A model generated the notes under the pieces. That model saw only the letters and a list, made by a program, of their open reading frames with translations. It was not told where the DNA came from and searched no databases. The position numbers and the translations under genes are program-made. DNA of 64,000 nucleotides from a virus (taxonomy: Duplodnaviria; Caudoviricetes), in the IMG/VR virus record IMGVR_UViG_2744054452_000001, positions 1 to 64,000 of that record; one strand, 5' to 3'. This document shows positions 7,238 through 60,271 of this stretch, one piece after another (the stretch's first letter is position 1; each line of letters begins with the position of its first letter).

Positions 7238-7496
7238 CACGCCCTGACTCTGTTACAAACATAGTCAACTATATTTAATCATAGGTACATATATTTAAAT
7301 GGATGTACGTAGATGCTGATATGTGCGAATGTAGTTACCTCTATTTGGTGTGACTATGTTTAAATGCATGTCCATGCGTGTGAATGCAGGAACACTGGCT
7401 TAAATTAACTTGCCTCTGTGTACCTATATTTGATATAAACGCATGCAACGGGCGCAGCCGCGCCTGACCAACTTCAAATGCGCAGAGGATCACGTA

Positions 7497-21029: not shown

Positions 21030-21150
21030 TTGTTCGCTGCCCCATTAAGAACGGTATTTAAGAGAGGGTTATATATAGGGGAAACGCGAAAATCGCTAAC
21101 AAAATTTTCGCTTTATGAAAAATCACCGGTAAGTTATTGAATTGAATAAT

Positions 21151-21205: not shown

Positions 21206-22069
21206 CTATCTGCCTGTTTTAATCCATGCAGGGAGGTTCACCGTCAGTAGTTTAGACAGCCCGGTAGGACGGGAACTGGACTCGTCCTGGCGGGAATACA
21301 CACCGAGCATGCTTTTGACAAACCCGGAGCGAACACAGTCTGCGATGGAGAACTCCACGACCGCGACTTCATCGAGCTTACCGGTGCGGCGGATTGCATC
21401 ACCCATGCCAGAGAGACCCTGAATGTCAGATTGATCCAGGTCGCCGCAGATCATCACCTTGCAATTCTGGCCAACTCGGGTGAGCAGCATCTTCATTTGC
21501 TCCGGCGTGGTGTTCTGCGCCTCGTCAACGATGATCCAGGCATCATTGAAGGTGCGCCCGCGCATGAATGCCAGAGGAAGGGGTTCTACCTGGCCACTCT
21601 TGAGCGCATATTCCAGTTGGCCAGCGCCCATGCTGTCCTTCATGATCTGTCGGACTGGCTCGATGTAAGGGGCGAATTTTTCATCCAGCTCGCCAGGCAG
21701 AAAGCCCAGCTTCTCGCCGGCCGCCTCGATTGCGGGTCGTGTAAGGACGATCTTGCTGATTCGCTTAGAAGTGAATGCCTCGCATGCCATTGTCACGGCA
21801 ACATAGGTCTTGCCGGTGCCCGCTGGGCCTGTTGCGAAGATAAGCTGGCTCGTATTGATCGCGGAGATCAGGAGCTTCTGATTGGCGCTCTGCGCCTGCA
21901 GCTTTTTGGCTGGCCTGCTCGGCTGGTATTCCAGCTGAGCAAGTGCATTTGTAAGGTGTGAGTTCACCGGATCGCCCCGGCCAATGCGCCCACTTTTGTT
22001 ATTTTTGTTCTTATGGTTGCTTGCGCTTGCCATCGTCATCTCCAGTGAACTCAGGAACGAACTATACAT
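21206..22069 (-). CDS. phoH: PhoH-family ATPase
   Basis: GPAGTGKT, TRPAIE, LGFLPG, RGRTF, DEAQN, GDLDQSD. Confidence 0.95.
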   Translation of the reverse strand: MYSSFLSSLEMTMASASNHKNKNNKSGRIGRGDPVNSHLTNALAQLEYQPSRPAKKLQAQSANQKLLISAINTSQLIFATGPAGTGKTYVAVTMACEAFTSKRISKIVLTRPAIEAAGEKLGFLPGELDEKFAPYIEPVRQIMKDSMGAGQLEYALKSGQVEPLPLAFMRGRTFNDAWIIVDEAQNTTPEQMKMLLTRVGQNCKVMICGDLDQSDIQGLSGMGDAIRRTGKLDEVAVVEFSIADCVRSGFVKSMLGVYSRQDESSSRPTGLSKLLTVNLPAWIKTGR

Positions 22070-22135
22070 AGTCAGTCCTGACTTACCTATAAGGCAAATG
22101 AAGAAAGTTGAAATATTTTTTCATTTCCACCTTCT

Positions 22136-22155
22136 TCACGTAAGTTACATTAAAT
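22136..22155. repeat. 20-bp direct repeat, copy 2
   Basis: Identical to 11966-11985. Confidence 0.85.
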
Positions 22156-22165
22156 CCAGATGCGA

Positions 22166-22188
22166 GAAAGCCCGCGCAATGGCGGGCT
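22166..22188 (-). terminator. intrinsic terminator at the end of the late operon
   Basis: AAGCCCGC...GCGGGCTTT. Confidence 0.7.
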
Positions 22189-22193
22189 TGTCG

Positions 22194-22409
22194 TCACTTC
22201 TTGGCCGAAAAGCGAGCTATGCGGTCTGCCAAAACTCCCTGCAGCTGGGTCATCAACCCAGACTGACGCACCAGCAGCTTTGAGTCCTCCCAATCGAGCT
22301 TCGCAAACGCTTCGCCCGCAATGAACGAATTGAGCTTGGCCAGGCGTTCGTCCAGCTCGTTCTTCTCATGCACGACTCGCAGCTCGTGCGGCATCAGGCC
22401 GGCGGTCAC
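22194..22409 (-). CDS. small helical protein, crAss001_48-like
   Basis: PHELRVVHEKNELDERLAKLNSFI...LLVRQ..LM...LADRIARF; GTGA coupling at 22409. Confidence 0.7.
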   Translation of the reverse strand: MTAGLMPHELRVVHEKNELDERLAKLNSFIAGEAFAKLDWEDSKLLVRQSGLMTQLQGVLADRIARFSAKK

Positions 22410-22756
22410 AGGCGGCCGTCCTTCTTGGCCAGCTCTGTGAGCAGTTGAAAGCCCATCGGTTGCCACATCTGGCGCACGGCGTCCTCGCGGGCGTAATGGC
22501 GGCCCAGCTCGGCGTCGAAGTTCTTGGGCGAAACAACCTGGCTCTTGCCGACGATGGTGCCGCCGTTAGCCAGCGTGAAGATGCAGAAGGTCAGCAGCTC
22601 CAGTGGCTTGAGGTCGGCGTCCATGCCAAGTGGCACTTCCTTACCGACGTATGTGCCGGCCTCGATCGCTCCGTTGCGGCCGTCAGCGGCAGTGAAATAG
22701 TGCTCGCTCACGATGAAGGCTTCAATATCAGCCAGGGTCACTTTTGGGGCGTTCAT
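22406..22756 (-). CDS. N4 gp49/Sf6 gp66-family protein
   Basis: LTFCIFTLANGGTIVGKSQVVSPKNFDAELGRHYAREDAVRQMW. Confidence 0.85.
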   Translation of the reverse strand: MNAPKVTLADIEAFIVSEHYFTAADGRNGAIEAGTYVGKEVPLGMDADLKPLELLTFCIFTLANGGTIVGKSQVVSPKNFDAELGRHYAREDAVRQMWQPMGFQLLTELAKKDGRL

Positions 22757-23376
22757 TCGCCACTCTCCTTGTTGTTGTTATTGGTGCAATAGGTCTGCAC
22801 CCAGCCCACCAGCTTGTCGTGCTTCACGGCAAGGGCTAGATAGGTCTGTGAGCTTTCCTGGTCGCTCAGTGCAAGGTCTGCCCACGTAGGGGCTTGAGGC
22901 CCGGTGCCGGCGTCATCAGCTCGGCCGGCAGCGGCGGCAGCTGGTGCCCTGCCCGCACGTAGATCGGGGTTGGTTTTTGCACGGGCTTCGTTGAGCAGGC
23001 TGACAATGCCAGGATCGACGCGGCTGCCGCCCATCGAATCAGCCTTACAGGATTGAGATCCACTTTTCTTCCCTTCGTTGAGATATGCGGCAAGCTCGCG
23101 CTTCGCCCGGGTTGCGTCACCGCCCAGCCTTGCAATCTCTGCCTCGGCTCGTTCGCGGTAGTCGCTGGATGCGCGTGCGCGGGCTTCATCAATGGCCTCT
23201 TGCTTGCGCTTTTCCTCACCGGACTTTTGGGCGTATTCGTTGACCGCCTGGGTGTACCCAGCGGCTGTGCCCTGCAGACGACCTTCGATCTCGCCGGCGG
23301 CCCTGCCCTCTTGATAGGTCAGGAAGACCGTGAGCACTGCAGCGCCAGCGATCGCGGCTTTCGACAACCAGGTCAT
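22753..23376 (-). CDS. i-spanin (Rz-like)
   Basis: N-terminal TM segment, coiled coil, located after the holin. Confidence 0.75.
   Translation of the reverse strand: MTWLSKAAIAGAAVLTVFLTYQEGRAAGEIEGRLQGTAAGYTQAVNEYAQKSGEEKRKQEAIDEARARASSDYRERAEAEIARLGGDATRAKRELAAYLNEGKKSGSQSCKADSMGGSRVDPGIVSLLNEARAKTNPDLRAGRAPAAAAAGRADDAGTGPQAPTWADLALSDQESSQTYLALAVKHDKLVGWVQTYCTNNNNKESGE
22866..23063 (-). CDS. o-spanin lipoprotein (Rz1-like), embedded in Rz
   Basis: GTG 23063, signal RWAAAASILALSA|C lipobox, Pro-rich mature part. Confidence 0.8.
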   Translation of the reverse strand: MDLNPVRLIRWAAAASILALSACSTKPVQKPTPIYVRAGHQLPPLPAELMTPAPGLKPLRGQTLH

Positions 23377-23741
23377 TCGCTGTCCTTGTCTTCCTGGCGG
23401 TTCTGCGCGGCGCGCTCACCGAACCAGAAGCCCACCAGGGTCGCCACGATTGGGCCGATACCGTTCATGTATGCCTCTGCGGTAATGTCGTGGCGGTACC
23501 AGGCCATCGTGCAGACCACGGTGAATGCCGTGGCGAACATCACGGTCATGAACGGCCGCGCGGCGGCATTGAGCACCTGCATCCAGGTTAGTGCCGTGGT
23601 TGCTTGCTCGCGCTCTGCCAGCGCCAGCTGCGTGCGTTCGCGGGCGGTGCGCGGGGCACCCCCCTCAATGCGAGGCGTCACGTTGAGCGCGCGGCCGGCG
23701 GCAGGGTCGTTGGGGATCAGGGGTTCGCGGTCGTCTTTCAT
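23373..23741 (-). CDS. putative holin
   Basis: ARP motif and two TM helices ending GFWFGER; coupled to the endolysin gene. Confidence 0.75.
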   Translation of the reverse strand: MKDDREPLIPNDPAAGRALNVTPRIEGGAPRTARERTQLALAEREQATTALTWMQVLNAAARPFMTVMFATAFTVVCTMAWYRHDITAEAYMNGIGPIVATLVGFWFGERAAQNRQEDKDSE

Positions 23742-24229
23742 GGCACCAGCCCCGCGAGGTATTGGGTCTTTTTGCCCGGGCTGAACTTGGCGGTCAGTAC
23801 CTGGCGCTTTGTGCCGACACTGATGTGAACCCAGCTCCCCTCCCAGATCAGTTGGCCAAACACAATGTTCGATTTCTGGATTGCGCGGCAGATCTCGAGC
23901 GGCGTGCCGTAGCGCGGGCATGTGAAATCGGCAGCCAGGCCCAGCAGGTGATCGCTGTTTTTGGATCCACCGACCGCAGCATTGACTTCGGGCGAGCGAT
24001 AGCCGGAGCTGACGTGAATCACCTTGTTGCCCAGCAGGGAGCGCACTTGCTCCAGCAGTTGAGCTACCTTGAACAGATTGCGCAGGGCGTCTTGGTCAGG
24101 GATGTTGGACAGCCCCTTGCGCGTTGCGGTGTCGCTGCGTGTGAACTCCTGCAGCATGAAGTGAAGGGAAAGCTCAAGCGGGCGCTTGGCTGCGTCTGTG
24201 CGCAGCACGTTCTGGGTCGAAGCACTCAT
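23738..24229 (-). CDS. endolysin, peptidase M15A
   Basis: SSGYRS, SDHLLGLAADF, WVHIS. Confidence 0.92.
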   Translation of the reverse strand: MSASTQNVLRTDAAKRPLELSLHFMLQEFTRSDTATRKGLSNIPDQDALRNLFKVAQLLEQVRSLLGNKVIHVSSGYRSPEVNAAVGGSKNSDHLLGLAADFTCPRYGTPLEICRAIQKSNIVFGQLIWEGSWVHISVGTKRQVLTAKFSPGKKTQYLAGLVP

Positions 24230-24567
24230 TGGCCAGCACCCTTCTGCAGGATGGGCAGTACCCAGGCAAAGGCTGCTGCGCCGCCGGCAGCCCACATGGC
24301 GCGCACAAGCCAGATGGTCGTTTGAACACGGGTTTTGTCGCGCTCGTACTCGATGTAAATGTCCCGAACGGACTTCTCGACGGTGTCCAGCCGGCGCTCA
24401 ACGCGGTCGTGGAACTTCTGCATCATGGCGATGCGCTCGTCAATCACGGTGATGCGCTGCATGGCTTCTGTCATGCGGCGCATCAGCTCTTTCATTTCAC
24501 CCAGCTCGTCTGCCAGGTGCTTGAGGTCGCGCTGAGTGGCGACATTCTGGTCTGTTGTGGTTGTCAT
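24226..24567 (-). CDS. lysis-cassette membrane protein (coiled coil + C-terminal TM)
   Basis: Coupled to the endolysin gene. Confidence 0.65.
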   Translation of the reverse strand: MTTTTDQNVATQRDLKHLADELGEMKELMRRMTEAMQRITVIDERIAMMQKFHDRVERRLDTVEKSVRDIYIEYERDKTRVQTTIWLVRAMWAAGGAAAFAWVLPILQKGAGQ

Positions 24568-24639
24568 TATTCTTATAGTCCACTTAGTAAGTAAGTCAAA
24601 ACTGACTTCTTAAAAAGCGGAGTATATAGACATGACGGA

Positions 24640-24894
24640 CTATTTACCAGTCGCTACCAATGCCTTGGGCGAGTGCTCGCGTGCCAGCTCTGCGCTGTAG
24701 GCTCCCCGGCAGTGGTTTGACTGCCAGAAAAAGAGTGCATTCACCACGGCGACGAAAACGCCCCACTTTCGGCTGCCGGCCGTCTTCATGCGCCAGGCGC
24801 GGGAGCAAATGGTCTCATCAGGCATGCCTGCCCAGAGAGTGTTCCAGAGCTGGCTCAGGGCAATGCCTACATGGCCAAGGTAGTTTTTCATCAT
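24640..24894 (-). CDS. small phage protein
   Basis: G.PDETICSRAWR...LFFWQSNHC motif, common near tail genes. Confidence 0.7.
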   Translation of the reverse strand: MMKNYLGHVGIALSQLWNTLWAGMPDETICSRAWRMKTAGSRKWGVFVAVVNALFFWQSNHCRGAYSAELAREHSPKALVATGK

Positions 24895-24908
24895 GCTTCC
24901 TTTTCTAT

Positions 24909-25625
24909 TTAATTGATGATGGGTCGAGGTGTTATTTCGGTCGGCGTATCGCCTGGCTCATACGTGTCTTCTGGTGCATCTACTGGTGGCTGCGGGGTCG
25001 GCTCTGGCACACCTGGGTTTGATGGCACGGCATCTTCGACGCCTTCCCAGATGCATCCCCTCACCTCCTGAACGGTGGTCGCCTCCATGATGCGTTCACG
25101 CAGCTCGCGCGCCTTGACATGCAGTGAGCTTGCGTACAGGGCGAATGCCGCGGGCATGCCAATCACGTCCTCCCGGGATAGCTCGATGGTCGAGTTGTCG
25201 GCGCAGACCCAGAGGGTTGAGAAATCCTGGTCGAAGAATTTTGCAGCGATCGCCGCCTGCGCAGTGGTGTTAATGCGGGACGCGCTGCGTTCGTCGGAGT
25301 CGAACACCCTCCCCTTGTACGGAAAGCCCCTGGTTTCAAGACCGTCGCGGATTCGGACGATGGCGGCCCAGCGTGCAGCCTGTTCTTCTTCTAGCGGGCT
25401 CTGGTATGGGCCTGAGTCGATGATGCCCTCGGCAAAGAGCCTGGCGCGGGTCTTGCTGTAGACCTCCGATGTGAGTTCTGTGTATTCGCCGTCAATCTTC
25501 ACGGAGCGAAATCCAAGCGACTGCTGAATCCCGTCCATATCGAAAGAGGTCAGCGCTGTGCCGACCCACGAAAACCCGTCGCCAGGATTGCATGCGACAC
25601 TGCTGATGCTAAAGTTTCTTTTCAT
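24909..25625 (-). CDS. DUF4376-like tail-associated protein
   Basis: RDGLETRGFPYKGRVFDSDERS...WVCADNS. Confidence 0.75.
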   Translation of the reverse strand: MKRNFSISSVACNPGDGFSWVGTALTSFDMDGIQQSLGFRSVKIDGEYTELTSEVYSKTRARLFAEGIIDSGPYQSPLEEEQAARWAAIVRIRDGLETRGFPYKGRVFDSDERSASRINTTAQAAIAAKFFDQDFSTLWVCADNSTIELSREDVIGMPAAFALYASSLHVKARELRERIMEATTVQEVRGCIWEGVEDAVPSNPGVPEPTPQPPVDAPEDTYEPGDTPTEITPRPIIN

Positions 25626-25628
25626 TTT

Positions 25629-26120
25629 TTAACCGCCTGTTTGTTCGTAGTTGAACCAAGTTCTGTAGCCAGTGTTGAGATACGCGGCCTTTCCATTTGC
25701 AAAGGTCACATAGATTTGAATGTCATGCCCGACCGGGCCGCCGGAGCCGAATGCGCTAATGTTGATCTGGGCAGCGCCAGCAACGCTGCACTGCATAAGG
25801 AGCTCATAGCCGGGGGTATAGGCGGTTGACGCCCAATTGGTCATATTTGCGAAAACAACGGATGTAATGGCTCCATTGTTTGTGGCGACGTATATGTAGG
25901 CTCCGCTTGTCCCCCTCTGCTCGTAGTAGTCGAGCCATGTAATTCCCGACACGTAGGCATAGGAGTTGGTCTTTCCCTGCAGGTTCGCCATGGAAATGGA
26001 GCCGCTTGGCACGCCGGCAAGGGAGCGCACTCGTGAGTCGTTCAGATTGAGCCCGCCTGCGCCGATGCCAAGCTCAGCGGCAACTTGCGCCATAGTGATC
26101 TGGCCTGTTGGAAGAGTCAT
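25629..26120 (-). CDS. tail-fibre-associated protein
   Basis: LPTGQITMAQVAAELG...ISMANLQGK N-terminus, typical of genes after tail fibres. Confidence 0.65.
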   Translation of the reverse strand: MTLPTGQITMAQVAAELGIGAGGLNLNDSRVRSLAGVPSGSISMANLQGKTNSYAYVSGITWLDYYEQRGTSGAYIYVATNNGAITSVVFANMTNWASTAYTPGYELLMQCSVAGAAQINISAFGSGGPVGHDIQIYVTFANGKAAYLNTGYRTWFNYEQTGG

Positions 26121-26159
26121 GATGGGCGGCCATGGCCGCCCTCCTTTCCTTGTAAGAAT

Positions 26160-32100: not shown

Positions 32101-33203
32101 TACAGCACGCCACTCACGGTTCCACCGACCTGGACGCGCCAGATAGAGGCAAGGCCAGGGGTTGCTGGATACTTTCCCGTGCTCAGATCCACGCCGCCCA
32201 TTTCAGCGAACGAGTTCTGGACGCTGCCGACGATCGAACGTGCGGTGTCCTCGCTCTCTTTGGCGGCTGCAGCAGAAGCCGCTGCAGCGGTCTCGCTGGT
32301 CTTTGAGTTGGTCTCGCTGGTCTTTGCATTCAGCGCAGACGCCGCGGCGTTCGATGCGCTGTTGCTCGCCTCCGTTGCCTTGGACGATGCGGTCGATGCA
32401 CTGCCGGCGGCCGCAGTTTGGCTGGCGGCAGCGTTGGTTTCGCTGGTCTTGGCCGCAGTTTGGCTGGCGGCAGCGTTGGTTTCGCTGGTCTTGGCCGCAG
32501 TTTGGCTGGCGGCAGCCGCAGTTTGGCTGGCAGCAGCAGCAGTTTTGCTCGATGCGGCGTTGGTCTCGCTGGTCTTGGCGTTGGTCTCGCTGGTCTTAGA
32601 TGCCGTCTGGCTGGTTTTTGCCTGGTCGGCGTAGTATTTGGCACCGTAACCCTGGCCAGTCACCACTTCTGAGGTGGTCTGTGTTGCCCACTTTTGTGCC
32701 TGTGCCGCACTGGAGCTGGAGCTGGTTGCGCTCGCGGCGGCATTACCGGCGCTGGCTGCAGCATTGGTCTCGCTGTTCTTGGCGTTCGTTGCGTGCGTGT
32801 TGGACTTGGCGATGTTTTCAGTCGTGACCGCCATGGCCTCGCTGGCAACGACCGCAGACTCGGCTGCTTTTTCAATCGCCAGATTCGCACTCTCAAGCGC
32901 GCTCAGAACGTCCGACGAGACAGTTTTGTGGGCATTGATAATGTCTGCCGCAGAGTGCGCCAGCTCACGCGAATAGCCCTGGACAGGGATGATCTCGTAA
33001 GGGGCGGTGGTGCTGGGGCCGGCGTATGCCCTGGCAAGCGTGATCTCAGTTGCCGAGACCACGGTTTTGATTTCGTAGTGTTTGCCGTCCGGGCCCACGA
33101 AGGCTTCACCGCGCTCAATGTTGTCAACAAAGTTGGCGAGCGAGCAAATGACCTTCGCGGAACCGTTCACGACGGTAGCGTTACCGCGCTTGTACCATTC
33201 CAT
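26160..33203 (-). CDS. long tail fibre with C-terminal S74 intramolecular chaperone
   Basis: Stf-like AAKTSETN repeats, repeated ATKLQTARTIxGVxFDGT modules, YSDKRLK...GLLAQDVQ C-terminus. Confidence 0.92.
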   Translation of the reverse strand: MEWYKRGNATVVNGSAKVICSLANFVDNIERGEAFVGPDGKHYEIKTVVSATEITLARAYAGPSTTAPYEIIPVQGYSRELAHSAADIINAHKTVSSDVLSALESANLAIEKAAESAVVASEAMAVTTENIAKSNTHATNAKNSETNAAASAGNAAASATSSSSSAAQAQKWATQTTSEVVTGQGYGAKYYADQAKTSQTASKTSETNAKTSETNAASSKTAAAASQTAAAASQTAAKTSETNAAASQTAAKTSETNAAASQTAAAGSASTASSKATEASNSASNAAASALNAKTSETNSKTSETAAAASAAAAKESEDTARSIVGSVQNSFAEMGGVDLSTGKYPATPGLASIWRVQVGGTVSGVLYEAGDFLIYSKVLAAFYRINNSAAVTTVNGKTGAVVLSAADVGAATKTDNVASATKLQTARTIGGVSFDGTANINLPGVNTAGNQSTTGNAATATKLQTARTINGVNFDGTSNIALQWQGVPIASNQDLNDFKNEGAYYCAANVTAATLLNCPTGEAFSLRVWRAAGYIQELTTYRSDSGRKTYQRAFYGVNEWSAWERVYTTNDPPLAVSGNAGTATKLQTARTISMAGAATGTATVFDGSGNAIIPVTALDASMLTGEAPLSALVALGVAQARNAPGNGGAATDGGTDFDTMVTATAGGFYTLSGTYTNGPLGASASYTGVIHIIRRLYDAGSAVIQTVYSGNTSWSRTGARGASGWVFTDWAENVTTSRGTATAAAKLATVRSIGGVNFDGTANIDLPGVNTTGNQNTTGSAAKLTTARTVTIGSTARSFDGSANIAWTLADLGLGNVNNTSDANKPISTATQTALNAKLDANKAGAKSGVATLDSGGFVPEAQLSPDLLSNVLNSSLSVGGANLQVNSSFEARTEEGEPLVGTVTVSPKGFGSSIAGTSAVSGEKVTRSYVESPLAQSSVAFRMYGEKLSATRYMDVVTAATIPAQPGDFVVASSHIRGTVGATFRMYLQWRNASNGTISTPSRAFDIGSETDFQRCILAAGPAPAGTTGVYVYFGRINGIDGVTPVFMDVDNVQIEMGKVATAYKPSALDNFVTDGLLLSKTANLDNLVTPGDYFSQQGLSVQPGGPSISGTNLTSWGMIRVSHNGPRIVQEAMSDTAPYASAMRWSVDSGKTWKAWSLTSLVESANKLQTARTINGVEFDGTGNITVNAPYLGNASGAMPTGTATYGLTSGVYVDGIYNGTASGYPITYGNRIRLVGHQGIATTEIYHEWQSGKTRLFVRAHGDVATYSWTAPQEVAFVSGNVASATKLLNTRTINGTDFDGTSDIVVPASIEDVTAKSLNTVLSAGFFHGSRSSTDSSANTYADSLPFTGAADFGGVVLGSSARNDVAQILNNGKALFVRGNDATGTPVSDWSEWERVLTDSIDLELKPGKKFVVPDDPNSYISMTAANVSNVVAPIIYAKMGGSDAFRLGVGATSTNNGFAELATADDGSEQIYVRQYTGSFAAIKRQAALLDENGNTNFPGQVSTINGFTSATGTSYVASLRAGGSILQPSNSTAGAFMPFLAGNTTSGSIGLATYQGTLRAYYMTKANVDANTNSVSKNAVLLDENGNGIWDGNLAASTFSGNGAALTSLNAGNISAGTLPVARGGTGTTTSTGSGNVVLSTSPTISDSLSIVATGKSAAIEIGDINGTVATTPYIDFHSGTSVVDYDSRIMAYGGTTGSAGGVLQVVASMFETTAAATIRSTSIASKTDATDGALRVLGGVGVKGVSVFGDRVGIGTSSASSVQLDVLQNTIVANSSPFGSRILVDVKDGALTASRTAYGEYARIRSYLTYANGKELGFNMTTVAGHFEAQDAIDGAHTQELYGVRGYAVVSQPTGGTVTEQVTGRIEGVRGYSLLSAANQTATTVIGNYSYPHLNNSTAVATNMIGYEAYVRNQAGTATTAYGIKVGISGTFSGVRYGIYSTGESENLLSGILRVNATTAATSTTTGSLIVKGGAGFAGQVFAAGFNGPLTGNASTATKLAIERTINGVSFDGSANVSGAMTLPTAAASWIDGTGRGQAAIVFSPSTASSWHAWASQKTAGGNSFAIGQLGESWHLSWASAANINAGTNVTTQLLRADSNGLEVTGSVKITSSGEGQLFFTSSGGYAYGNSGAIGFYKPNVGGCAMDNSGNWNVANSVNATRIYVSDWLRTTGNCGWYSESYGGGMMMQDSTWVRVYNGKALYVGNEGAFTGNVTAYYSDKRLKTKLKPIKGALAAVAQLTGYHYHANKLGAKYGYDPEKAEVGLLAQDVQAIIPEVVEQAPFDRTAVKGESKTGKFYLTLKYERLVPHLVEAIKELDEKNQALELRLASLEAAIRTK
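32405..32600. repeat. 21/42-bp intragenic tandem repeats (AAASQT/AKTSETN)
   Basis: Repeated GCAGTTTGGCTGGCGGCAGC and TCGCTGGTCTTGGC units. Confidence 0.8.
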
Positions 33204-33261
33204 GTTTTTCTTCTTCTTATGTGGTTGGGCGCGGTAATTCTAAGTCAGTATTGACTTATCT

Positions 33262-39239: not shown

Positions 39240-39255
39240 GCTGTTCTTCTTCTAG

Positions 39256-40554: not shown

Positions 40555-41266
40555 GCTTGACCCCCTTGTGGCGCATCACATGGGTGGTATGGCGACGCCA
40601 GTAGCCGCCATAAACGTCTTTGCTGCTCAAGCGCCCGTAGAGGTGGTGGCCAATGAGGTCGTCACCGACAACAACGGCGGCATGGTTGGGCACATCGGAC
40701 AGAACCTGCATCAGCAGCACATCCCCGATGCGCAGCGCCTCGGTGTCTTGGACGCGCTCAAAGCCCCACTTCTTGTAGTTGTCCAGGTACAGGTTCTGGC
40801 CCTTGGCCCACCACTCGTCCTCACGCACGGGGGTATCGAGCTTGATGCCGTGGGTCTGCCAGTACCATGCCTGCACGAAGCCGAAGCAGTCGAAGCTGCC
40901 ATGGTGGAACTCCCGCTGGTACAGCGGACGGTTCTCAAAGTCGGGCTGTGTGTAGCTCCAGCGGCCCGCCGGCCAGCTGAGAATCACCCAGGGCAGGCCG
41001 GAGCGCTGGCACGACGCCAGGTCGAAATCGCTGGGCAAATGGATGTAGTTGGGGTGCGAGTGAAACACCCCCACCAGCTCGCCCATGTCTTCGGCAGCCC
41101 GGTAGTCGGTGTCGGAGATGGCGAAATAGTCCCCGGGCTTGTCGGAGATATTTGCGCAGGGCACGTACTTGATGCCGCCGGCGGCGCGCACCAGCAGACC
41201 ACATGCCTCCTTGGGAAACTCGCGCTGAGCGTGCTCCTGCATTGCCTGCTGCAGCGCAGGCGTCAT
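40544..41266 (-). CDS. tail tip protein K (JAB + NlpC/P60)
   Basis: EACG, HSHP, DCFGFV, HHLYGRLS; start at 41266 or 41287. Confidence 0.92.
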   Translation of the reverse strand: MTPALQQAMQEHAQREFPKEACGLLVRAAGGIKYVPCANISDKPGDYFAISDTDYRAAEDMGELVGVFHSHPNYIHLPSDFDLASCQRSGLPWVILSWPAGRWSYTQPDFENRPLYQREFHHGSFDCFGFVQAWYWQTHGIKLDTPVREDEWWAKGQNLYLDNYKKWGFERVQDTEALRIGDVLLMQVLSDVPNHAAVVVGDDLIGHHLYGRLSSKDVYGGYWRRHTTHVMRHKGVKHDA

Positions 41267-41288
41267 TTCTTCTTCTAGTTCTTGCATT

Positions 41289-41984: not shown

Positions 41985-41987
41985 GTC

Positions 41988-42329
41988 TTAAACCTCGGGC
42001 AGCTGCTCAAAGGTGCCCGAGAGCGCGGAGATCGTGCCGTGATCGCGCGCACGTTTCCACGAGCGGCACAGGTAGACGCCGCTGACCTCATCGGGATTCA
42101 CCCAGATGAAGCCCTTGTAGCCTCCGTGCTCTCGCAGGAAGTCGTCAATCGCTTTGATCTCGGCCCGGGTGCCTGTGAATTTCAACTCCCAGGCTTCAAG
42201 GATCGGTGTAATGCTGTTTGGTGCGCGCTGTTCGTAACCGTCGCCCATCTTGGCGCTGCTTACGGATGGCTCAACGTTCAAGGACAGCGATGCGTCGGGG
42301 AACCACCCAAATGTTTTTCTTGTTGTCAT
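41988..42329 (-). CDS. minor tail protein M
   Basis: MGDGYEQR, FLREHGG..F.W, TFEQ. Confidence 0.92.
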   Translation of the reverse strand: MTTRKTFGWFPDASLSLNVEPSVSSAKMGDGYEQRAPNSITPILEAWELKFTGTRAEIKAIDDFLREHGGYKGFIWVNPDEVSGVYLCRSWKRARDHGTISALSGTFEQLPEV

Positions 42330-42383
42330 GGGGAATCCAGTGGCTTGTTTGCCACTGGATTCTAAGTCAGCACTGACTTAGCA

Positions 42384-46244: not shown

Positions 46245-46298
46245 GACCTATCCTTGTTTTTCTTGTTATGTCGGACGGGCCACGGGAGCTAAGCTGGC

Positions 46299-46987: not shown

Positions 46988-47048
46988 TTTTTTCTTCTTA
47001 TTGAGCTGCTGGGCGGCACCCGGCTGGGGCCGCCCATGGGGTCACTGG

Positions 47049-47918: not shown

Positions 47919-48011
47919 TGCTCTATTTCCCTCTATTCTTATTCTTATGGGTAAGTCAGGACTGACTTAGCTATGTATTCTAAGCAGAGTCAGTCGGTGT
48001 GGCAACACCCT

Positions 48012-49317: not shown

Positions 49318-49319
49318 GG

Positions 49320-50189: not shown

Positions 50190-50192
50190 GGC

Positions 50193-50591: not shown

Positions 50592-50601
50592 TCTTGGTTC
50601 C

Positions 50602-50644
50602 TAAACAAAAAAGACGGGGCCGAGGTTCCACCACAGCTCCCGCC
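50602..50644 (-). terminator. putative terminator after the capsid gene
   Basis: GGCGGGAGC...GCCCCGTC stem followed by U6. Confidence 0.55.
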
Positions 50645-50681
50645 TTGCAAATAAGTCAGTCAGAACTGACTTATATCACGC

Positions 50682-51587: not shown

Positions 51588-51701
51588 GTTTTCTCCGTTC
51601 TTCTTCTTGTTATAGGAGTGAGTAAGTTCTGACTTACTTATTTTATGAACACAGTTGCCATTTTGCAAGCGGCCAGATGCAAATACTGACCGCCATGCAA
51701 A

Positions 51702-52613: not shown

Positions 52614-52685
52614 GTTCTTCTTCCTCGGCCAGTCTCTCGGCCTGATGTTGGTGATTCGGGGCCAGTCTCTCGGCCCCTGCTAAGG

Positions 52686-54275: not shown

Positions 54276-54454
54276 TGCGTTTGTTTTTATTGTTTTCGCA
54301 GATGCCATAGTAAGTCATTACTGACTTACAAGCAAGCAAAGAGCGGGGCACGGGCTGGGAACATCCCCAGGCGAGAAGGGAGGAAAGATCTAAAAACTTC
54401 CCGCCTACCCGTGCCCTGTCTCATGGCTTGCGGCGAGTATAACTCAGTTCTGAC

Positions 54455-55762
54455 TTATACCGAAACACCCAAAATTTCCACCTTGCGCACAGGGAATTCG
54501 TACTCGATGCAGTAGCCGGCCGCGTCAGCCGCGTGTTCGACACCTGCAGTCTTGTCAACTTCGCGGCTGTGGGGCTTGTACAGCGTCTGCTCAAGCGCCT
54601 CGATCAGCTTCTTGCATCGTGGGTCAACGTACATGCGAACCGCACCGCTTGCGCTCTTGAGCATGCGGTTGACGGAATTCACGCGGTCAGCGACTGGCGG
54701 GTGCTTCTTACGGTATTTCTGGCGCTTGAACCCGCGCTCACGGAACACGTCCAGGTCAGACTCCCCGCGCTGGTGCCCACGGTACGCGCCGGCGGGGTCG
54801 GGATAGATCGTGATCTGGTTGATGAAACGCCAGTACCGGCGCTCGATCTCGTCGCACAGCTCTTCGGTGTTGGAGCTCGGCAAGCAGATTTCATCGACGG
54901 CCCACAGCTCCTTGGTGCGCGGCTGGTACTGGAACACCACGGAACTCATGGGGTCGATGTTGAAGTCCTGCCCGATCCACAATGGCAGGTCGGGGTTGAA
55001 CGCCAGGCTCTTAACGTGCGTTTTTCGGTCGAATGCGTGATACACGCGGCCGCTCATGGTCTCGAATGACGCCTCAAACTCCTGCTTGAAGCTCTTTTCG
55101 TCCATGTCCTCACGAGCCGCCTGCAGTTCCTCCAACGGGATGAACGGCGAGGTGATCGTGGGGAACTGCCAGCTCATCCAGTCGCGCAGACCCTTCTTGC
55201 CCAGCGCGTAAAGCTCATGCAGGAAGTTGTACGCCTTGGGCGTGCCGATGAACAGGGCATGGCCGCCGGTGGATGCCAGCGTTGGGCGCAGCACCTTCTT
55301 CCAGGCCTCGGGGTCAATATCCTGCACCTCGTCCATGACAAGGTAATGGATCCCCACGCCGCGCAGCGAGTCGGGATTGTCCGCGCCCTTGAGCTCGATG
55401 CGCGTGCCATTGACCAACGTGATCGCCAGGATCGTTTCGTTGTACTTTTTGACCCACCCGCGCGGGATGGCCTCGACCAGCTCAGGCCACATGATCTGCT
55501 TGGCCATGCGGTAGGAAGGGGCGACGTACCAGACCAGGCGCTTTTTCTTGCGGGCGAACTTGATAAGGCTGGTCTTGGCCAGCTGGGTCTTGCCCCAGCG
55601 CCGGCCGGCGACCACCACCTTGAAGCGGTAAGGCGCGCTGTAGACCTCCATCTGCTTCTTGTGCAGAAAGAGCGTGTTTTCAGGAGGGCGGAACGACTCG
55701 CGGATCTCGTCGGTTGCTTCGGAGACCGCTGCTGCTACCGCCGTGGGCACGAGAAGGGTCAT
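54455..55762 (-). CDS. terL: terminase large subunit
   Basis: AGRRWGKT, VMDE, IGTPK, GQDFN, HAADAAGY. Confidence 0.96.
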   Translation of the reverse strand: MTLLVPTAVAAAVSEATDEIRESFRPPENTLFLHKKQMEVYSAPYRFKVVVAGRRWGKTQLAKTSLIKFARKKKRLVWYVAPSYRMAKQIMWPELVEAIPRGWVKKYNETILAITLVNGTRIELKGADNPDSLRGVGIHYLVMDEVQDIDPEAWKKVLRPTLASTGGHALFIGTPKAYNFLHELYALGKKGLRDWMSWQFPTITSPFIPLEELQAAREDMDEKSFKQEFEASFETMSGRVYHAFDRKTHVKSLAFNPDLPLWIGQDFNIDPMSSVVFQYQPRTKELWAVDEICLPSSNTEELCDEIERRYWRFINQITIYPDPAGAYRGHQRGESDLDVFRERGFKRQKYRKKHPPVADRVNSVNRMLKSASGAVRMYVDPRCKKLIEALEQTLYKPHSREVDKTAGVEHAADAAGYCIEYEFPVRKVEILGVSV

Positions 55763-56388
55763 TCCAGACTCCCCAGCTCGTCCAGACCATCGGTCTCGCC
55801 CGCACCCATGTCGTCGGTTTCAGGAACTGCGTCGCGCAGCTGCTCGACTTCGCCCTGGGTCAGCTCGCGCACGGTCAAATCTGGCAGGTCGTCAATGTCC
55901 TCCATTGCCTCCATCTTTGGCACGTTCAGGAGGTCATAGGCTTCCTTGCGTGTGATGGCCAGCACCTCGGCAGCCATCTTGTAGACGGCCATCGACTTGC
56001 GCAGCGTCCCAACGTCCACGCCGGCGGCGCGGGACTTGTGAATGTCCTGAAACGCCATCTGTGCCAGCATCTGCGACATGCTGTAGTGGCGCTCTTTGAC
56101 GGACTTAATGCGCTTGAGTGTTTCGTCCAGCTCGCTCCTGACGACCTCTTCGACCGCTTCTGCCACGGCCTTCGTCGCCGCGGTGCTGGCAACGTCCTCG
56201 ACACTGGTGCCCTTGGAGATACCCATCTTGGCGAACAGGCGCGAGAAGGTCTCGGGGCGCTTGCCGAACTTCTTGGACAGATCAGCGAGGGTTACGGTGC
56301 CCGAAGTCCACAGTGCCGCTGCCTCTGCGCGCTGGCGGGGTGTCAGGTTGCCCCGAATCACCTTTTCCTTCTTGGTCTCTTCGCTCAT
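55759..56388 (-). CDS. terS: terminase small subunit
   Basis: N-terminal HTH; coupled to terL. Confidence 0.8.
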   Translation of the reverse strand: MSEETKKEKVIRGNLTPRQRAEAAALWTSGTVTLADLSKKFGKRPETFSRLFAKMGISKGTSVEDVASTAATKAVAEAVEEVVRSELDETLKRIKSVKERHYSMSQMLAQMAFQDIHKSRAAGVDVGTLRKSMAVYKMAAEVLAITRKEAYDLLNVPKMEAMEDIDDLPDLTVRELTQGEVEQLRDAVPETDDMGAGETDGLDELGSLE

Positions 56389-56561
56389 GCGCCCACCCCT
56401 TGCGCATGGCCTTCACCCTCTTCCGTTTGGGCAAAAAAAAGGGCGGGTACTAAGCCCGCCTGTACTCCAAACTCGTCTGAGGTGTAGTGAGCGGAATTAT
56501 AGCATCCAAATTCAGTCAGTTCTGACTTATTTTTTGGAATGCCGGTAGATGCATGGCTCAT
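56385..56561 (-). CDS. 58-aa putative leader ORF coupled to terS
   Basis: (AAN)6 tract before ATG 56561; its TGA overlaps the terS ATG. Confidence 0.5.
   Translation of the reverse strand: MSHASTGIPKNKSELTEFGCYNSAHYTSDEFGVQAGLVPALFFAQTEEGEGHAQGVGA
56433..56460 (-). terminator. intrinsic terminator upstream of terS
   Basis: GGCGGG-CTTAGTA-CCCGCC-C-T8. Confidence 0.8.
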
Positions 56562-56685
56562 GTTTTCTTCTTCTTCTTGTTGGCCAGGGGCTCCGGGTCT
56601 GTGTCGGCCCGGGAACCTCAAAAACACCTTACCCCCCATCTAAAAGGTATTCAGAGAACCTTATTAATAGGGGAAACCGAAAAAC

Positions 56686-56852
56686 CGCTAACAATTGTTA
56701 GCGCTATTCTTTTTATAGCAAAAATAGCTCCCGGCAGTGAATATTTTTCTTTTCAAAATCAACGGTTTACAGCAAATCGCTAACAATTGTTAGCGCTATC
56801 GTTTCTGTAGCGCTAACAATTGTTAGCGCTACTGTTTTGGTAGCACTAACAA
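56686..56852. repeat. three perfect palindromes CGCTAACAATTGTTAGCG plus a half copy
   Basis: 56686-56703, 56778-56795, 56811-56828, half copy near 56841. Confidence 0.9.
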
Positions 56853-56855
56853 ACC

Positions 56856-57212
56856 TCAGTCCTCCAGTACGAACTCACCCGGCTCGACGGTGATTTCCGG
56901 CACTTCGTCTTCCAGTTCTGGGATGGGCACCGAGGCGGAAAGAGGACGAGGATCGTAGAAAGCCAGACCACCCGGAGCGAGCCCGAATGTCTGACGCATG
57001 CGGCCCCTTCGCTGGGCAACCCCCAATTTCACGATCAGCCCCTTGGTGGCCATGGCGCGGATCGTGAACTGCAGGGATGCCTTGCTGGCGGACTCGGTGA
57101 GATCAAGGATCTCGTCCAGGTCGGGATCGCCGCGCTCACGGATGAAGTCCATGATTTTTCGCTGCATGGCGGAAGGCGCCCTCTTCTTGACGGGCTTGCG
57201 TGCGACTGTCAT
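56856..57212 (-). CDS. winged-helix DNA-binding protein
   Basis: QRKIMDFI...LDEILD...SKASLQFTIRAMATKGLIVK. Confidence 0.75.
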   Translation of the reverse strand: MTVARKPVKKRAPSAMQRKIMDFIRERGDPDLDEILDLTESASKASLQFTIRAMATKGLIVKLGVAQRRGRMRQTFGLAPGGLAFYDPRPLSASVPIPELEDEVPEITVEPGEFVLED

Positions 57213-58288
57213 TCGGCAAGCACCTCACCGCGCTGGATGCGCTCGAGTTCCTTCAACTGCTCTTTCAGCGCTTCGCGCTCGCTGGGCTTCAAGGGCGGCT
57301 CGTTGACGGGATACTGGCCAGCCCATGTCGGCACCCAGCCTTCCCAATTGCCACTAAGGGCGGCATCAGGCGCCTGCTCATCGAATGCCAGCAGAGGCAT
57401 GACGTTCGGCAGCGGCTGGCTGGTGGGCGGGGCACTGAAAATCCAGTACACCGTAGCCGAATAGACCAGCTGCTGAATCTGGCGCACCACGTACTCGATG
57501 GCCAGCTCGTTCACGCGGGTCATGCCCAAGTCGCGCTTGTCGCCCGACTTCTCGACGGATGACCACTTGTAGTAGAACTCGCGCAGCTTGCGATCCATGA
57601 CCGCGCGCTCGGCATCTGGAAGCCCACGCAGCTCGGCCAGAACCGCGACTATGTCGTAGCCTGGCGCCTTGAAGTAGGCGGCAAAGAAGACCAGGCCATC
57701 ATTGAGCGCCGATGCCGTCTTGGGGCGGGTGAACTTCATGCCCGTCTTCACTGAGAAGGGGTTGAAGCGGCCCATTGAACTGCGGCTCTCAATGAATCGG
57801 ATTTCGTAGCGGGCGCAGTACATGCGATAGGCCAGGTTTTTGAACCGGTAGGCGATGCCGGCACCGCGGTACATGGTGTCGAGCACGGTGCGGTTGTTCC
57901 AGGCTAGGTTGCGGTTGATCCAGGCCAGGCGCGTCTGGTTGACCAGGCGGTTATCACGCCCGTTCACGTTTGGGCGCAGGCGCGGGAATACGTCGTTGCG
58001 GCCGCCGTCCAATGGGCGAGGGTTCGCAATGACCGTAACGCCGACGAGCTGGGGAGCTTCGCCTGGAACGCGCAGCATGCAGCGCAGAAAACGAGAACCC
58101 GCAGCCAGCGTGTGTCCCTTGTAATGCAGCTCACTGAGAGCATGCCAGTCGTCAACAGTGCCCCATTCCACATAAAGGTGCTTCATCAGGCTCAGCGTGT
58201 GGGACTTGCCGGGACGCCGAGGCTGATAAAGGATCTCCACTTCCTGCTGCTCCAGCATGTCGGCAATTTTTTCTTGATAGCTTTTCAT
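57209..58288 (-). CDS. GNAT/Mom-like acyltransferase
   Basis: ELHYK, RTVLDTMYRGAGIA (acyl-CoA motif A), SMGRFNPF. Confidence 0.75.
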   Translation of the reverse strand: MKSYQEKIADMLEQQEVEILYQPRRPGKSHTLSLMKHLYVEWGTVDDWHALSELHYKGHTLAAGSRFLRCMLRVPGEAPQLVGVTVIANPRPLDGGRNDVFPRLRPNVNGRDNRLVNQTRLAWINRNLAWNNRTVLDTMYRGAGIAYRFKNLAYRMYCARYEIRFIESRSSMGRFNPFSVKTGMKFTRPKTASALNDGLVFFAAYFKAPGYDIVAVLAELRGLPDAERAVMDRKLREFYYKWSSVEKSGDKRDLGMTRVNELAIEYVVRQIQQLVYSATVYWIFSAPPTSQPLPNVMPLLAFDEQAPDAALSGNWEGWVPTWAGQYPVNEPPLKPSEREALKEQLKELERIQRGEVLAE

Positions 58289-58300
58289 GCTGGCGCCTGA

Positions 58301-58630
58301 TCAGATCGCGTTAGCGGCCACCAACTTGGACAGGATCTGGGCCTCCGTGGCATCACCGGTGTGCACCAGCTTGGCGGTGGACTCGCCACTGCCATTTGCA
58401 CGCAGGGAAACGACAGATGGCGAGCCACGCAGGCCCAGGGCACGGGCATCGGCCAGGTTCTCCTGAATGTCCACCGTCACCATGGGCACAAGGTTCTCTT
58501 CGCAGACCTTTTCCAGAATGGGCTTGAGGCGCTTGCAGGGCGCGCAATTGGCGGCAGTGAAGCACACCACCCCGTCAAAGCCGCTCAAAACCAGTTCGCG
58601 GTATGTCATATTTTTATTGTTCAGGTTCAT
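58301..58630 (-). CDS. thioredoxin-like protein
   Basis: FTAANCAPCK, cis-Pro GSPS; start at 58630 or 58609. Confidence 0.88.
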   Translation of the reverse strand: MNLNNKNMTYRELVLSGFDGVVCFTAANCAPCKRLKPILEKVCEENLVPMVTVDIQENLADARALGLRGSPSVVSLRANGSGESTAKLVHTGDATEAQILSKLVAANAI

Positions 58631-58687
58631 ATCTAACTAAGTCAGTTGTGACTTACTTTTTATTTTAATTCAGCGCGACCGTGCTGG

Positions 58688-58891
58688 CTACTTGAGACTC
58701 GGCACGCACTCTTCGTACAGCCAGACGGCCAGGCCAATCACCGCCATGGTGATGAATTCAAAGACGCCGACCAGGAAGCAGGCAACCACGAAGGCCGCCA
58801 GCAGCAGCACGCCGACCAGGCCGACAGTGACAGCCAGCAGCAGCACAAAGATGGCAATTACGACTGCCAGGACGTTGTAGATCACATTCAT
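58688..58891 (-). CDS. small membrane protein
   Basis: 67 aa, almost entirely hydrophobic. Confidence 0.6.
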   Translation of the reverse strand: MNVIYNVLAVVIAIFVLLLAVTVGLVGVLLLAAFVVACFLVGVFEFITMAVIGLAVWLYEECVPSLK

Positions 58892-58914
58892 AGATATTTC
58901 TCTTCGGGAAGGGG

Positions 58915-59598
58915 TCAGGAAAGGGCCGCGACGCGCTCTGCATCGCGGTTGAATACATCGACGGTCAGCTTTTCACGAAAGCGCTTGGTGATGCACAGAT
59001 CAGGCGCCAGGTCATCGACCATGTCGGTGTGGGTTGTGGCCACCAGCAGCGTGGCACCGACCTGGCGGGCCATCTTTTGCATGGTGTAGGCGACGACCTT
59101 GGCGGCCGTGCGGTCAAGGATGGCCAGGAATTCGTCGGCAGCCCAGACTTGAGCGCCGGTCTCGATGGCCTTTGCCAGCCGGAAGCGGTAGCGCTGGCCG
59201 TCCGACAGCTCGGAGGGGCGACGGCAGTACAGGTAGGCGTCTTGAATGCCGGCCACGCCCAGCAGGCGAATGGCGTCCTTGGCATCTTTGCCAATTTGGT
59301 CGATCAGGGGCTCGTCGGTGAAGGAAATCGAGTCCAGGTTGATGACGGAGTCGCCGGCAGCGGCCATCTGGGCTTGCAGCTCGCGCAGCAGCACGGATTT
59401 GCCCCCGCCCGACTGGCCAGTGATGTAAACCACGTCGCCTTGGGCAATCTGCAGCTCTAGGTTGTCGAAAACGACGAATTCCTTGTCATCCAGACCGATG
59501 CCAAACGCTTCGGCAATGGTCAGCACACGGTCAGAGCGCTGGATGCGCGTCATAAAGCGCTTGTCGATCTTGTAGGTGCGTCGCACGGGGGCGTTCAT
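58915..59598 (-). CDS. soluble ABC-type ATPase
   Basis: GQSGGGKS, LSDGQ signature, WAADEF, ATTH. Confidence 0.9.
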   Translation of the reverse strand: MNAPVRRTYKIDKRFMTRIQRSDRVLTIAEAFGIGLDDKEFVVFDNLELQIAQGDVVYITGQSGGGKSVLLRELQAQMAAAGDSVINLDSISFTDEPLIDQIGKDAKDAIRLLGVAGIQDAYLYCRRPSELSDGQRYRFRLAKAIETGAQVWAADEFLAILDRTAAKVVAYTMQKMARQVGATLLVATTHTDMVDDLAPDLCITKRFREKLTVDVFNRDAERVAALS

Positions 59599-60248
59599 GC
59601 TGTCTCCTTCTCGGTGAGCTCTTGAACCCATTTGCTGAACGCAGCCGCACCGGTCTCCCCGGTCGTCTTCTCTGCGATCGCCAGCATCTTTGCGATACCC
59701 CGGGCGGTGTCGGTGGGCACGTCCTTGAATCCGAAGGCGCGCGCAAGAGTGACGCGTGCCTCTGCAGCTGCAGCTGTACGCTTTGTCAGCTCTGCTTCCT
59801 GCTCCTGCAGCACGTCGTCCATGTCCTCCATGAACGCGCTGGTGTCGATGGCGCCCAGGTCGGCCGTGCCAAAGTCCAGCTCCTTGGCATCAAAGATGCC
59901 GCCCAGCAGCTCGGTGTTGAATTCAGCCAGGTCAGCGGTCAGCTTCTGGGTGTCCAGATCACCGATAGCCACGCGGTTGTCTGCGAGGCGGGCGGCCTTG
60001 ACCTGGTCGGGGGTGAGGTCGTAGCGCACCAGCACCAGAACCTCGGTCATGCCGAGCTCCAGGCATGCCAGGCGACGGCCATGGCCCTTGATGATGACGC
60101 CGAACTGGTCAACAACGATCGGCTGGTCAAAGCCGAAGCGCTGGATCGACGCGGCAATTGCCTTTACCTGTGCCTTGTCGTGCTTTTTGGCATTCAGCTC
60201 ATACGGAATGAGCGCGTGAATGTCCCATTTTTCAATCTTGCTATCCAC
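59595..60248 (-). CDS. ParB/Srx N-terminal domain protein
   Basis: PYELNAKKH, FGFDQPIVVD, IKGHGRR, RLADN; GTG 60248. Confidence 0.88.
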   Translation of the reverse strand: MDSKIEKWDIHALIPYELNAKKHDKAQVKAIAASIQRFGFDQPIVVDQFGVIIKGHGRRLACLELGMTEVLVLVRYDLTPDQVKAARLADNRVAIGDLDTQKLTADLAEFNTELLGGIFDAKELDFGTADLGAIDTSAFMEDMDDVLQEQEAELTKRTAAAAEARVTLARAFGFKDVPTDTARGIAKMLAIAEKTTGETGAAAFSKWVQELTEKETA

Positions 60249-60271
60249 TTTTCTTCTTCTTCTGTGGGTGA

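Follow-up and report, generated by a model that had tools for sequence, protein, structure and literature searches.

The catabolite activity (CA) sites of the Pseudomonas Hfq/Crc system are defined, in an excerpt of PMC5990048, as AAnAAnAAnAA near the Shine-Dalgarno (SD) sequence, and A-rich and AG-repeat 5′ untranslated regions (5′ UTRs) can act, according to an excerpt of PMC5389652, as enhancers with little or no SD sequence. Here we describe (AAN)4-6 tracts at the translation starts of a phage, the record IMGVR_UViG_2744054452_000001 of IMG/VR (Duplodnaviria; Caudoviricetes). The window, i.e. the whole stretch of DNA analyzed, comprises the first 64 kb of this 80,515-bp record, which is rated approximately 71% complete. 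The label G000 stands for the whole record, while G001, G002, nickie, and the L-numbered loci are relatives. An earlier sequence-only reading had taken the tracts for sites of a late-gene switch worked by host Hfq and a phage-encoded Hfq. Our analysis leaves it evenly balanced whether the tracts are cis-acting translation-initiation leaders to which host Hfq could also bind and in which the phage Hfq-like protein has no part.

Triplet-phased AAN tracts and their genes

G000 has a GC content of 58-60%, and nearly every gene lies on the minus strand. Tracts of at least four AAN triplets occurred 14 times on this coding strand of the 80,515-bp record and once on the plus strand. In the window, the 11-mer AANAANAANAA was present 23 times, 22 times on the minus strand and once on the plus strand, compared to a mean of 0.76 (sd 0.92, maximum 4) in 100 dinucleotide shuffles, and 24 times on the coding strand of the whole of G000. 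Genes were defined by a purpose-made open reading frame (ORF) picker, yielding 82 ORFs, to which one leader ORF was added (83 genes), with four starts fixed from the N-termini of homologues. The predicted enrichment in start windows over shuffled sequence was borne out: at positions -30 to -1, 10 of the 83 genes had at least four triplets where 0.43 were expected (maximum 4; within-window letter shuffles, 5000 trials), and 13 of 83 had at least three triplets within 30 nt of the start (mean 3.5, maximum 10 in 5000 shuffles). For 11 of the 14 minus-strand tracts, the distance from the tract end to a homology-supported start was 0, 0, 0, 1, 2, 4, 8, 9, 11, 16, and 22 nt; of the remaining three, one is located within the phoH coding sequence near its 5′ end, another occupies codons 2-6 of a tail gene, and the third falls into an unannotated stretch.

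Phase was assessed by a pattern-blind test that takes all non-overlapping 15-mers with at least 10 A and asks whether their non-A letters share one phase. On the coding strand of G000, 10 of 34 such 15-mers were perfectly phased (0.72 expected, maximum 5 in 5000), and 102 of 149 non-A letters fell into the dominant phase (mean 79.2, maximum 92). On the non-coding strand, perfectly phased 15-mers amounted to 0 of 12. Seven of the perfectly phased segments are located in untranslated leaders, and some other phased tracts are AAN codons. The triplet phase is real and exceeds what base composition gives, and the tracts match the published sequence definition of Hfq distal-face and CA sites, as had been claimed. 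Leader tracts were in frame with their own start in 4 of 11 cases, no more than chance, and several contain exact (AAG)3-4 repeats.

All 11 coordinate sets given by the sequence-only reading read as described on the mRNA strand, here the minus strand. Below, an SD core is AGGA, GGAG, or GAGG at -18 to -4 from the start, and the palindrome is the 18-bp element TAAGTCAGNNCTGACTTA.

21995..22012, minus strand: phoH, (AAN)6, within the ORF at its 5′ end and before the part encoding the PhoH domain; translated in frame as KNKNNK
22768..22782, minus strand: gp49-family gene, (AAN)5, 11 nt before ATG 22756; doubles as the in-frame 3′ end of ORF 22753-23376
33204..33218, minus strand: tail fibre, (AAN)5, abuts ATG 33203; without SD core; 22 nt downstream of the palindrome at 33241-33258
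39240..39251, minus strand: J-like gene, short AAG AAG AAC AGC of the (AAN)3 class, fills the 16-nt spacer before ATG 39239
~41266-41280, minus strand: K gene, tract in codons 2-7 of the ORF
42313..42324, minus strand: tail gene ORF 41988-42329, (AAN)4, codons 2-6
46253..46267, minus strand: tape measure, (AAN)5, 8 nt before ATG 46244; the position best conserved in relatives
46988..47002, minus strand: tail chaperone G-like gene, (AAN)5, abuts ATG 46987; without SD core
47932..47946, minus strand: major tail, (AAN)4 plus AGA, then a GAGGG SD sequence and ATG 47918; 5 nt downstream of the palindrome at 47952-47969; predicted unpaired
51597..51611, minus strand: major capsid, (AAN)5, then a GGAG SD sequence and ATG 51587
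52614..52622, minus strand: scaffold-like gene, short AAG AAG AAC of the (AAN)3 class, abuts ATG 52613
54280..54294, minus strand: portal, (AAN)5 reading AAC AAT AAA AAC AAA, 4 nt before ATG 54275; without SD core; 16 nt downstream of the palindrome at 54311-54328
56564..56581, minus strand: terS leader, (AAN)6, ends 2 nt upstream of a 58-codon leader ORF (ATG start); the stop of this ORF and the terS-like ATG overlap
58610..58621, minus strand: thioredoxin-like gene, (AAN)4, abuts the homology-supported ATG 58609
60250..60263, minus strand: ParB_N-domain/methyltransferase-like gene, (AAG)3 AAA, 1 nt before GTG 60248

Tracts were present at 7 of 21 virion genes and at 3 of 62 other genes (Fisher p = 0.002). 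Among genes uncoupled to the preceding gene, the numbers were 7 of 13 for virion genes and 2 of 40 for others (p = 0.0003). The proposed association with virion genes holds as an enrichment and not as an exclusive property, the gp49-family gene, the thioredoxin-like gene, and the weak ParB_N-domain gene having tracts as well. In the plus-strand maintenance genes, tracts were looked for and none was seen, and the sole sizeable plus-strand block (6521-9771) contained zero AAN tracts.

Six of the ten tract leaders are devoid of an SD core, in agreement with the statement that several tract genes have no SD sequence, and four retain one; in the capsid, major-tail, and tape-measure leaders, the SD sequence is located downstream of the tract. 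Because the SD-less tract genes include virion-essential ones (tail fibre, tail chaperone), the tract must allow initiation.

CAT or TAT, described earlier as CAU/UAU at several tracts, precedes five of them (tail fibre, tape measure, major tail, capsid, and phoH), and the chaperone-G tract itself begins with AAT. The placement of the phoH tract in the 5′ coding region was also correct. Others need amendment: the K tract exists and lies within its gene rather than before it, the gp49 tract is at the same time the coding end of the upstream ORF, and the tract assigned to parB is present, while its gene encodes a second ParB_N protein with a weak match (19.5 bits, below the cut-off) that is homologous to a nickie gene annotated as DNA methyltransferase. 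The portal start ATG 54275 reads ATG ACC GAC, as in the G001 portal leader.

Leader architecture and conservation

The minimum free energy of the region from -30 to +30 averaged -6.3 kcal/mol for tract genes and -11.1 kcal/mol for the others (p = 0.014). Tracts were unpaired in 5 of 5 predicted leader folds, that of the portal gene being predicted as a 17-nt loop. An arrangement in which the tract is the loop of a hairpin hiding the SD sequence or the AUG was rejected as a general feature, as the summed energy (-31.8 kcal/mol) was close to that of upstream-flank shuffles (-27.8 +/- 5.8 kcal/mol; fraction at or below, 0.24), with the portal leader (0.008) as the sole outlier. The tail-fibre leader (33174-33259, minus strand) has a predicted long-range stem of the 5′ UTR with codons 5-9 around the entire initiation region (z-score -5.04; 0 of 200 shuffles fold as well). 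A scan of the window against Rfam gave no known RNA family.

The 18-bp palindrome occurs in 20 copies in the window (3059-61130), compared to 0.07 expected, and is found in most relatives (loci L003-L082), whatever their GC content, at 0-9 copies per 20 kb. It is positioned 5-55 nt upstream of 7 of the 14 minus-strand tracts.

47952..47969: palindrome preceding a tract, a predicted 5′ hairpin if transcribed; further copies preceding tracts at 33241, 42363, 51619, 54311, 58638, and 22068
47977..48005, minus strand: match to a sigma-70-like promoter, separated from the palindrome by 7 nt; others of this kind at 51640-51668 and 58662-58690

Between 41.5 and 61.4 kb, four of five sigma-70-like matches abut or overlap a palindrome, and several palindromes directly follow -10 boxes; the total of such matches is not above shuffle expectation, and their placement alone is notable. 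We weakly infer that the palindrome may be an operator near +1 that is transcribed as a 5′ hairpin, the tract being the unpaired stretch from hairpin to start codon. The late-control region (56380-56860, minus strand) begins with three copies of a 21-bp operator-like inverted repeat, followed by a promoter-like TTTCCCCTAT...TAA box (second copy at 21075-21084) and the (AAN)6 tract. The 58-codon leader ORF behind this tract, whose G001 equivalent has 12 codons, contains a palindrome, a TGnTATAAT box, and, at 56442-56460, a strong terminator. Because operator repeats, palindrome, and terminator occur in the late leader, late-gene control has conventional transcriptional candidates.

The tracts are confined to G000 and its closest clade. 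No coding-strand tract was found in 50 kb of nickie, and two complete relatives with 71-72% capsid identity have three and zero tracts, G002 being the one with none. Among the distinct capsid leaders of IMG/VR relatives, 2 of 65 have at least four triplets, and most leaders displayed have a GGA-type SD core. In the closest clade (eight loci, capsid identity 71-80%), 7 of 40 A-rich segments were perfectly phased where 0.56 were expected; significance was lost at a capsid identity of 66-72% (1 of 33) and of 64% or less (6 of 582, 3.19 expected).

Orthologous tracts were present at the capsid gene in L003, L121, and L021 (3 of 18 relatives), at the major-tail gene in L119 and L121 (2 of 13, with a shorter run in L102), at the tape-measure gene in L119, L121, L004, and L009 (4 of 6) and in G001, and at the equivalent late leader in L004, L017, L009, G001, and L121. 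The tape-measure and late-leader tracts are kept across relatives of 62-80% capsid identity, and the flanking leader sequence differs in the leaders displayed. Unique to G000 are the positions at chaperone G (0 of 9 relatives; SD core in 4 of the 9 orthologous leaders), the ParB_N gene (0 of 4), and the thioredoxin-like gene (0 of 4). Four tract genes without SD core have orthologues; among the 18 leaders of these orthologues, 10 contain an SD core and none contains a tract. The portal leaders of L003, L004, and G001 have CCTATAAGAA 2-4 nt before the ATG and that of L009 has CTTATACGAAG; G000 has (AAN)5 instead.

Contigs of four sequencing runs from two studies were approximately 99% identical to the window. 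Among the 40 of 653 substitutions listed, the 60250 tract has one extra triplet in the contigs of runs X1 and X2 (one study), and a strain variant of the thioredoxin-like tract at 58610 alters only the N of the last triplet. This evolutionary lability, with sporadic occurrence at capsid and major tail, absence at chaperone G of relatives, and a one-triplet strain difference, fits a tuning element.

We read the tracts first as initiation leaders because SD-less tract genes have SD-bearing orthologues, A-rich sequences are described as SD substitutes, and the tract leaders are less structured. As in A-rich enhancers, the tracts are placed upstream of the start, the SD sequence being weak or absent and the tract standing in its place. 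Each leader would be a short 5′ UTR with an (AAN)4-6 run of 12-18 nt that is unpaired and triplet-phased, and would head a translational unit, i.e. a gene not translationally coupled to the preceding one. The run would come after a transcribed operator-type palindrome (or a terminator) and before the start codon, at the place of the SD sequence in relatives, and would serve 30S subunits as a landing site that is rich in A and free of structure in this GC-rich genome. In some leaders it would assist a weak SD sequence and in others replace it, and its length would change by triplet slippage. Host Hfq should be capable of binding the tracts, given that they form perfect (ARN)n runs where the ribosome binds; as it would then compete with the ribosome, translation is perhaps Hfq-tunable. 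Ribosome recruitment, Hfq binding, and transcription starts are the inferred steps of this model.

The Hfq-like protein and rival explanations

G000 is an SSU5/nickie-like phage-plasmid. Its capsid protein shares 60-61% identity with those of nickie, phiK7B1, ZY21, hairong, and Nican01, which are Pseudomonas syringae phages of 112 kb, and approximately 49% with those of SSU5-type phage-plasmids. The gene order common to G000 and nickie runs from helicase/ParB-like genes over terminase, portal, capsid, tail, tape measure, and tail fibre to phoH, dnaB, primase, and ligase. As the plus-strand cassette at 6521-9771 encodes a repressor-like regulator, a ParA-like protein, an uncharacterized protein, and an HTH_36/replication-initiator-like protein, a plasmid-prophage state of G000 is plausible. 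At 2089-5841 the window contains a gene for an AAA ATPase of a porphyrin-biosynthesis family and a CobT-like gene, both of which also occur in nickie. In a genome scan for the host, no capsid matched over its full length at more than 60% identity. A metagenome-assembled genome of the Burkholderiaceae had a capsid fragment of 44 residues with 86% identity to the G000 capsid, and a search of 401 sampled genomes of the same order at E<=1e-50 gave no TerL; the 52 AANAANAANAA matches in the 4.7 Mb of this assembly are a background figure of one GC-rich genome and not a host test.

The window also encodes the Hfq-like protein of the earlier proposal, directly upstream of dnaB, and the two genes overlap or abut in all four genomes checked (G000, G001, G002, and nickie).

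19819..20247, minus strand: Hfq-like gene, Sm core at residues 72-131, upstream of and coupled to dnaB (18383-19819)
18383-20247 of the window, 98-1863 of L103, 1486-3191 of L104, and 42006-43737 of L002: pairs of Hfq-like gene and dnaB

The Hfq domain score of the G000 protein was 42.8 bits (cut-off 27), while that of the nickie copy, 23.4 bits, is below the cut-off. In a HMMER alignment to solved Hfq chains, the protein kept YKHAI, had Thr at the position of their Phe and Ser-Gln at that of the Val-Lys of one chain, and lacked a basic residue where one solved chain has Arg/Lys. We equate the aligned positions with E. coli Tyr25, Ile30, and the rim arginines, and with this numbering the description of the phage protein as distal-defective agrees with the alignment. 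A profile built from four Hfq-like proteins detected the gene in 16 of 19 near-complete relatives. GC-rich members of this set have 0-5 AANAANAANAA matches per strand compared to 24 on the coding strand of G000, and G002 has the Hfq-like gene and zero matches. Higher counts were obtained in four records, on both strands, whose 20-kb loci have a GC content of 41-46%. Inside the closest clade the comparison covers G000 alone, L119, L121, and L124 lying outside the search. As the Hfq-like gene is family-wide and the tracts are clade-specific, the proposed co-occurrence of tracts and phage hfq fails.

In the circuit proposed earlier, virion mRNAs are kept silent by host Hfq during lysogeny until, after induction, the distal-defective phage protein frees them. 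The virion enrichment of the tracts, the Hfq-domain protein with its kept YKHAI, its Thr for Phe, and its lack of basic rim-like residues, and the ParA-like, replication-initiator-like, and repressor-like cassette that makes a plasmid-prophage plausible all speak for it. They are outweighed by the failed co-occurrence, by the constant dnaB coupling, which points to another role, by the tracts on non-virion genes, and by the operator-like palindromes and terminator-gated late leader, through which silencing could be achieved at the level of transcription. Nor is it evident how a protein lacking a distal face would displace host Hfq from AAN RNA. An anti-tract RNA acting in trans was looked for, and outside terminator tails the (NTT) runs of the mRNA-sense strand did not exceed 9 nt. 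We therefore regard the circuit as hardly credible; judging from these sequence comparisons, the tract system does not include the phage Hfq-like protein, whose constant coupling to dnaB suggests a replication-linked role. A clade-specific RNA-binding protein was sought by a Pfam search of the 20 proteins without homologue in G001, G002, or nickie, in which the sole RNA-binding domain was a PIN domain. This PIN-domain protein (48.4 bits; G000 78208-78633, L199 14208-14633) is encoded beyond the window among small early genes.

The tracts might instead be operators for host Hfq in the first place, alone or with a Crc-like partner, the distal face binding (ARN)4-6 and repressing translation so that virion protein synthesis would follow free Hfq, i.e. 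host physiology. They have the sequence features of such operators, namely at least three to four A-R-N triplets, a position in the 5′ UTR near the SD sequence or start, and predicted single-strandedness, and they are matches to the CA site near the SD sequence as given in the excerpt of PMC5990048. The gp49 leader, AAT AAC AAC AAC AAG GAG, resembles the amiE6ARN RNA AAAAAUAACAACAAGAGG quoted in part of PMC6422490, and Hfq-bound A-R-N repeats are often associated with SD sequences according to an excerpt of PMC4104026. The IS10 transposase mRNA, bound by Hfq at its ribosome-binding site, provides a mobile-element precedent (PMC5006887, in excerpt). The perfect phase in G000 and its close clade, with variation only at N, is a further point in favor of operators. 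Several observations weigh correspondingly against tracts that are initiation leaders and nothing else. A strict triplet phase is predicted neither by S1 nor by the A-rich enhancer model, so that the leader model leaves it unexplained; to our knowledge, the distal face of Hfq is the only reader of such periodicity. Orthologous tracts vary at their N positions with the AA positions fixed, e.g. at the tape-measure gene in five relatives. Moreover, the low folding energy of tract leaders is partly due to their A-rich composition itself, and the gene starts were called by a crude ORF picker, four of them being corrected by hand. Slippage could, on the other hand, yield the identical phase pattern if A-rich variants were then selected. 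The operator reading also has to accommodate nickie, a phage of Pseudomonas, a genus with a described Hfq/Crc system, with zero coding-strand tracts in 50 kb, and the six of ten tract leaders that have no other ribosome-binding signal, where the tract cannot be a repressor site only. Primary Hfq operators thus appear unlikely to us, though by no means far-fetched. Binding of host Hfq in competition with the ribosome would nevertheless be a serious second reading, or else a second layer on initiation leaders.

Two further explanations dispense with translation. As neutral or near-neutral trinucleotide microsatellites, the tracts would have arisen by slippage in non-coding spacers and would have no role in expression. 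The exact (AAG)3-4 repeats, the one-triplet difference between near-identical strains, and the fast positional turnover among relatives are as such an origin would have it. The strand asymmetry of 14 to 1, the tight placement 0-16 nt before starts, the enrichment at the heads of virion units, the retention of the tape-measure and late-leader tracts at 62-80% capsid identity, and tracts such as that of the portal gene, which are not simple repeats, render it improbable. Alternatively, the tracts could be transcription signals, e.g. a phage-specific -10-like YATAAG with an A-rich initial transcribed region. The CAT or TAT before five tracts indeed gives [CT]ATAA, one tract begins with AATAA, relatives have CCTATAAGAA just before the portal ATG, and a TATATA box lies 7-19 nt upstream of the late-leader tract in L004 and L017. 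However, the SD sequences downstream of the capsid, major-tail, and tape-measure tracts require these tracts to be transcribed, a -10 element 0-16 nt from the ATG would leave no room for a normal start site, and better sigma-70-like matches occur upstream of the palindromes. We consider this explanation very improbable, even more so than neutral repeats, and retain initiation leaders as our first reading.

Relation to known systems

In the literature searched (mostly non-subscription journals), we found no description of such tracts on virion genes or of a phage-encoded Hfq. What the tracts mean depends on their reader. If they are only A-rich landing sites, they represent the way of a GC-rich phage to ribosome access without SD pairing. 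If host Hfq reads them, virion production of the phage is tied to a global RNA chaperone of the host. A stronger form of the latter, which is doubtful and to which we give somewhat less weight than to Hfq operators as such, is that the clade has set high-affinity Hfq distal-face sites at nearly every virion unit head, so that free host Hfq would gate late synthesis or the late mRNAs would sponge Hfq. Such gating or sponging would amount to a phage-wide post-transcriptional regulon built on the host RNA chaperone. The family-wide phage Hfq-like protein needs a different explanation, for which the constant dnaB coupling is a lead.

The CA sites of Pseudomonas, as in amiE6ARN, share with the G000 tracts four to six consecutive A-R-N triplets that are single-stranded and located at or overlapping the ribosome-binding site, and the sequences are almost interchangeable. 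They differ in that CA sites are found on catabolic genes, whereas the tracts are on phage virion and accessory genes, and in that nickie, a Pseudomonas phage of the same family, is without tracts. IS10 transposase mRNA is likewise a mobile-element mRNA, proposed in the excerpt of PMC5006887 to be held by direct binding of Hfq at the ribosome-binding site without a small RNA; there a single gene was tested experimentally, compared to about ten phage leaders predicted here. Titrating RNAs of the CrcZ type also present several A-rich Hfq motifs on abundant transcripts, and late (AAN)5-6 mRNAs could titrate Hfq in the same manner. The motifs of G000, however, occur one per leader across coding mRNAs and are not clustered in one non-coding RNA.

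The SD-independent A-rich and AG-repeat enhancers of E. coli (PMC7043885, PMC5389652, both in excerpt) resemble the tracts in their A-rich sequence within approximately 20 nt upstream of the start, weak or absent SD sequence, and low structure. No triplet phase is reported for them in these excerpts, whereas the phase of the tracts is strict and conserved in the clade. This type of leader element is already known, and the G000 tracts are best filed as a further set of it, the Hfq question aside.

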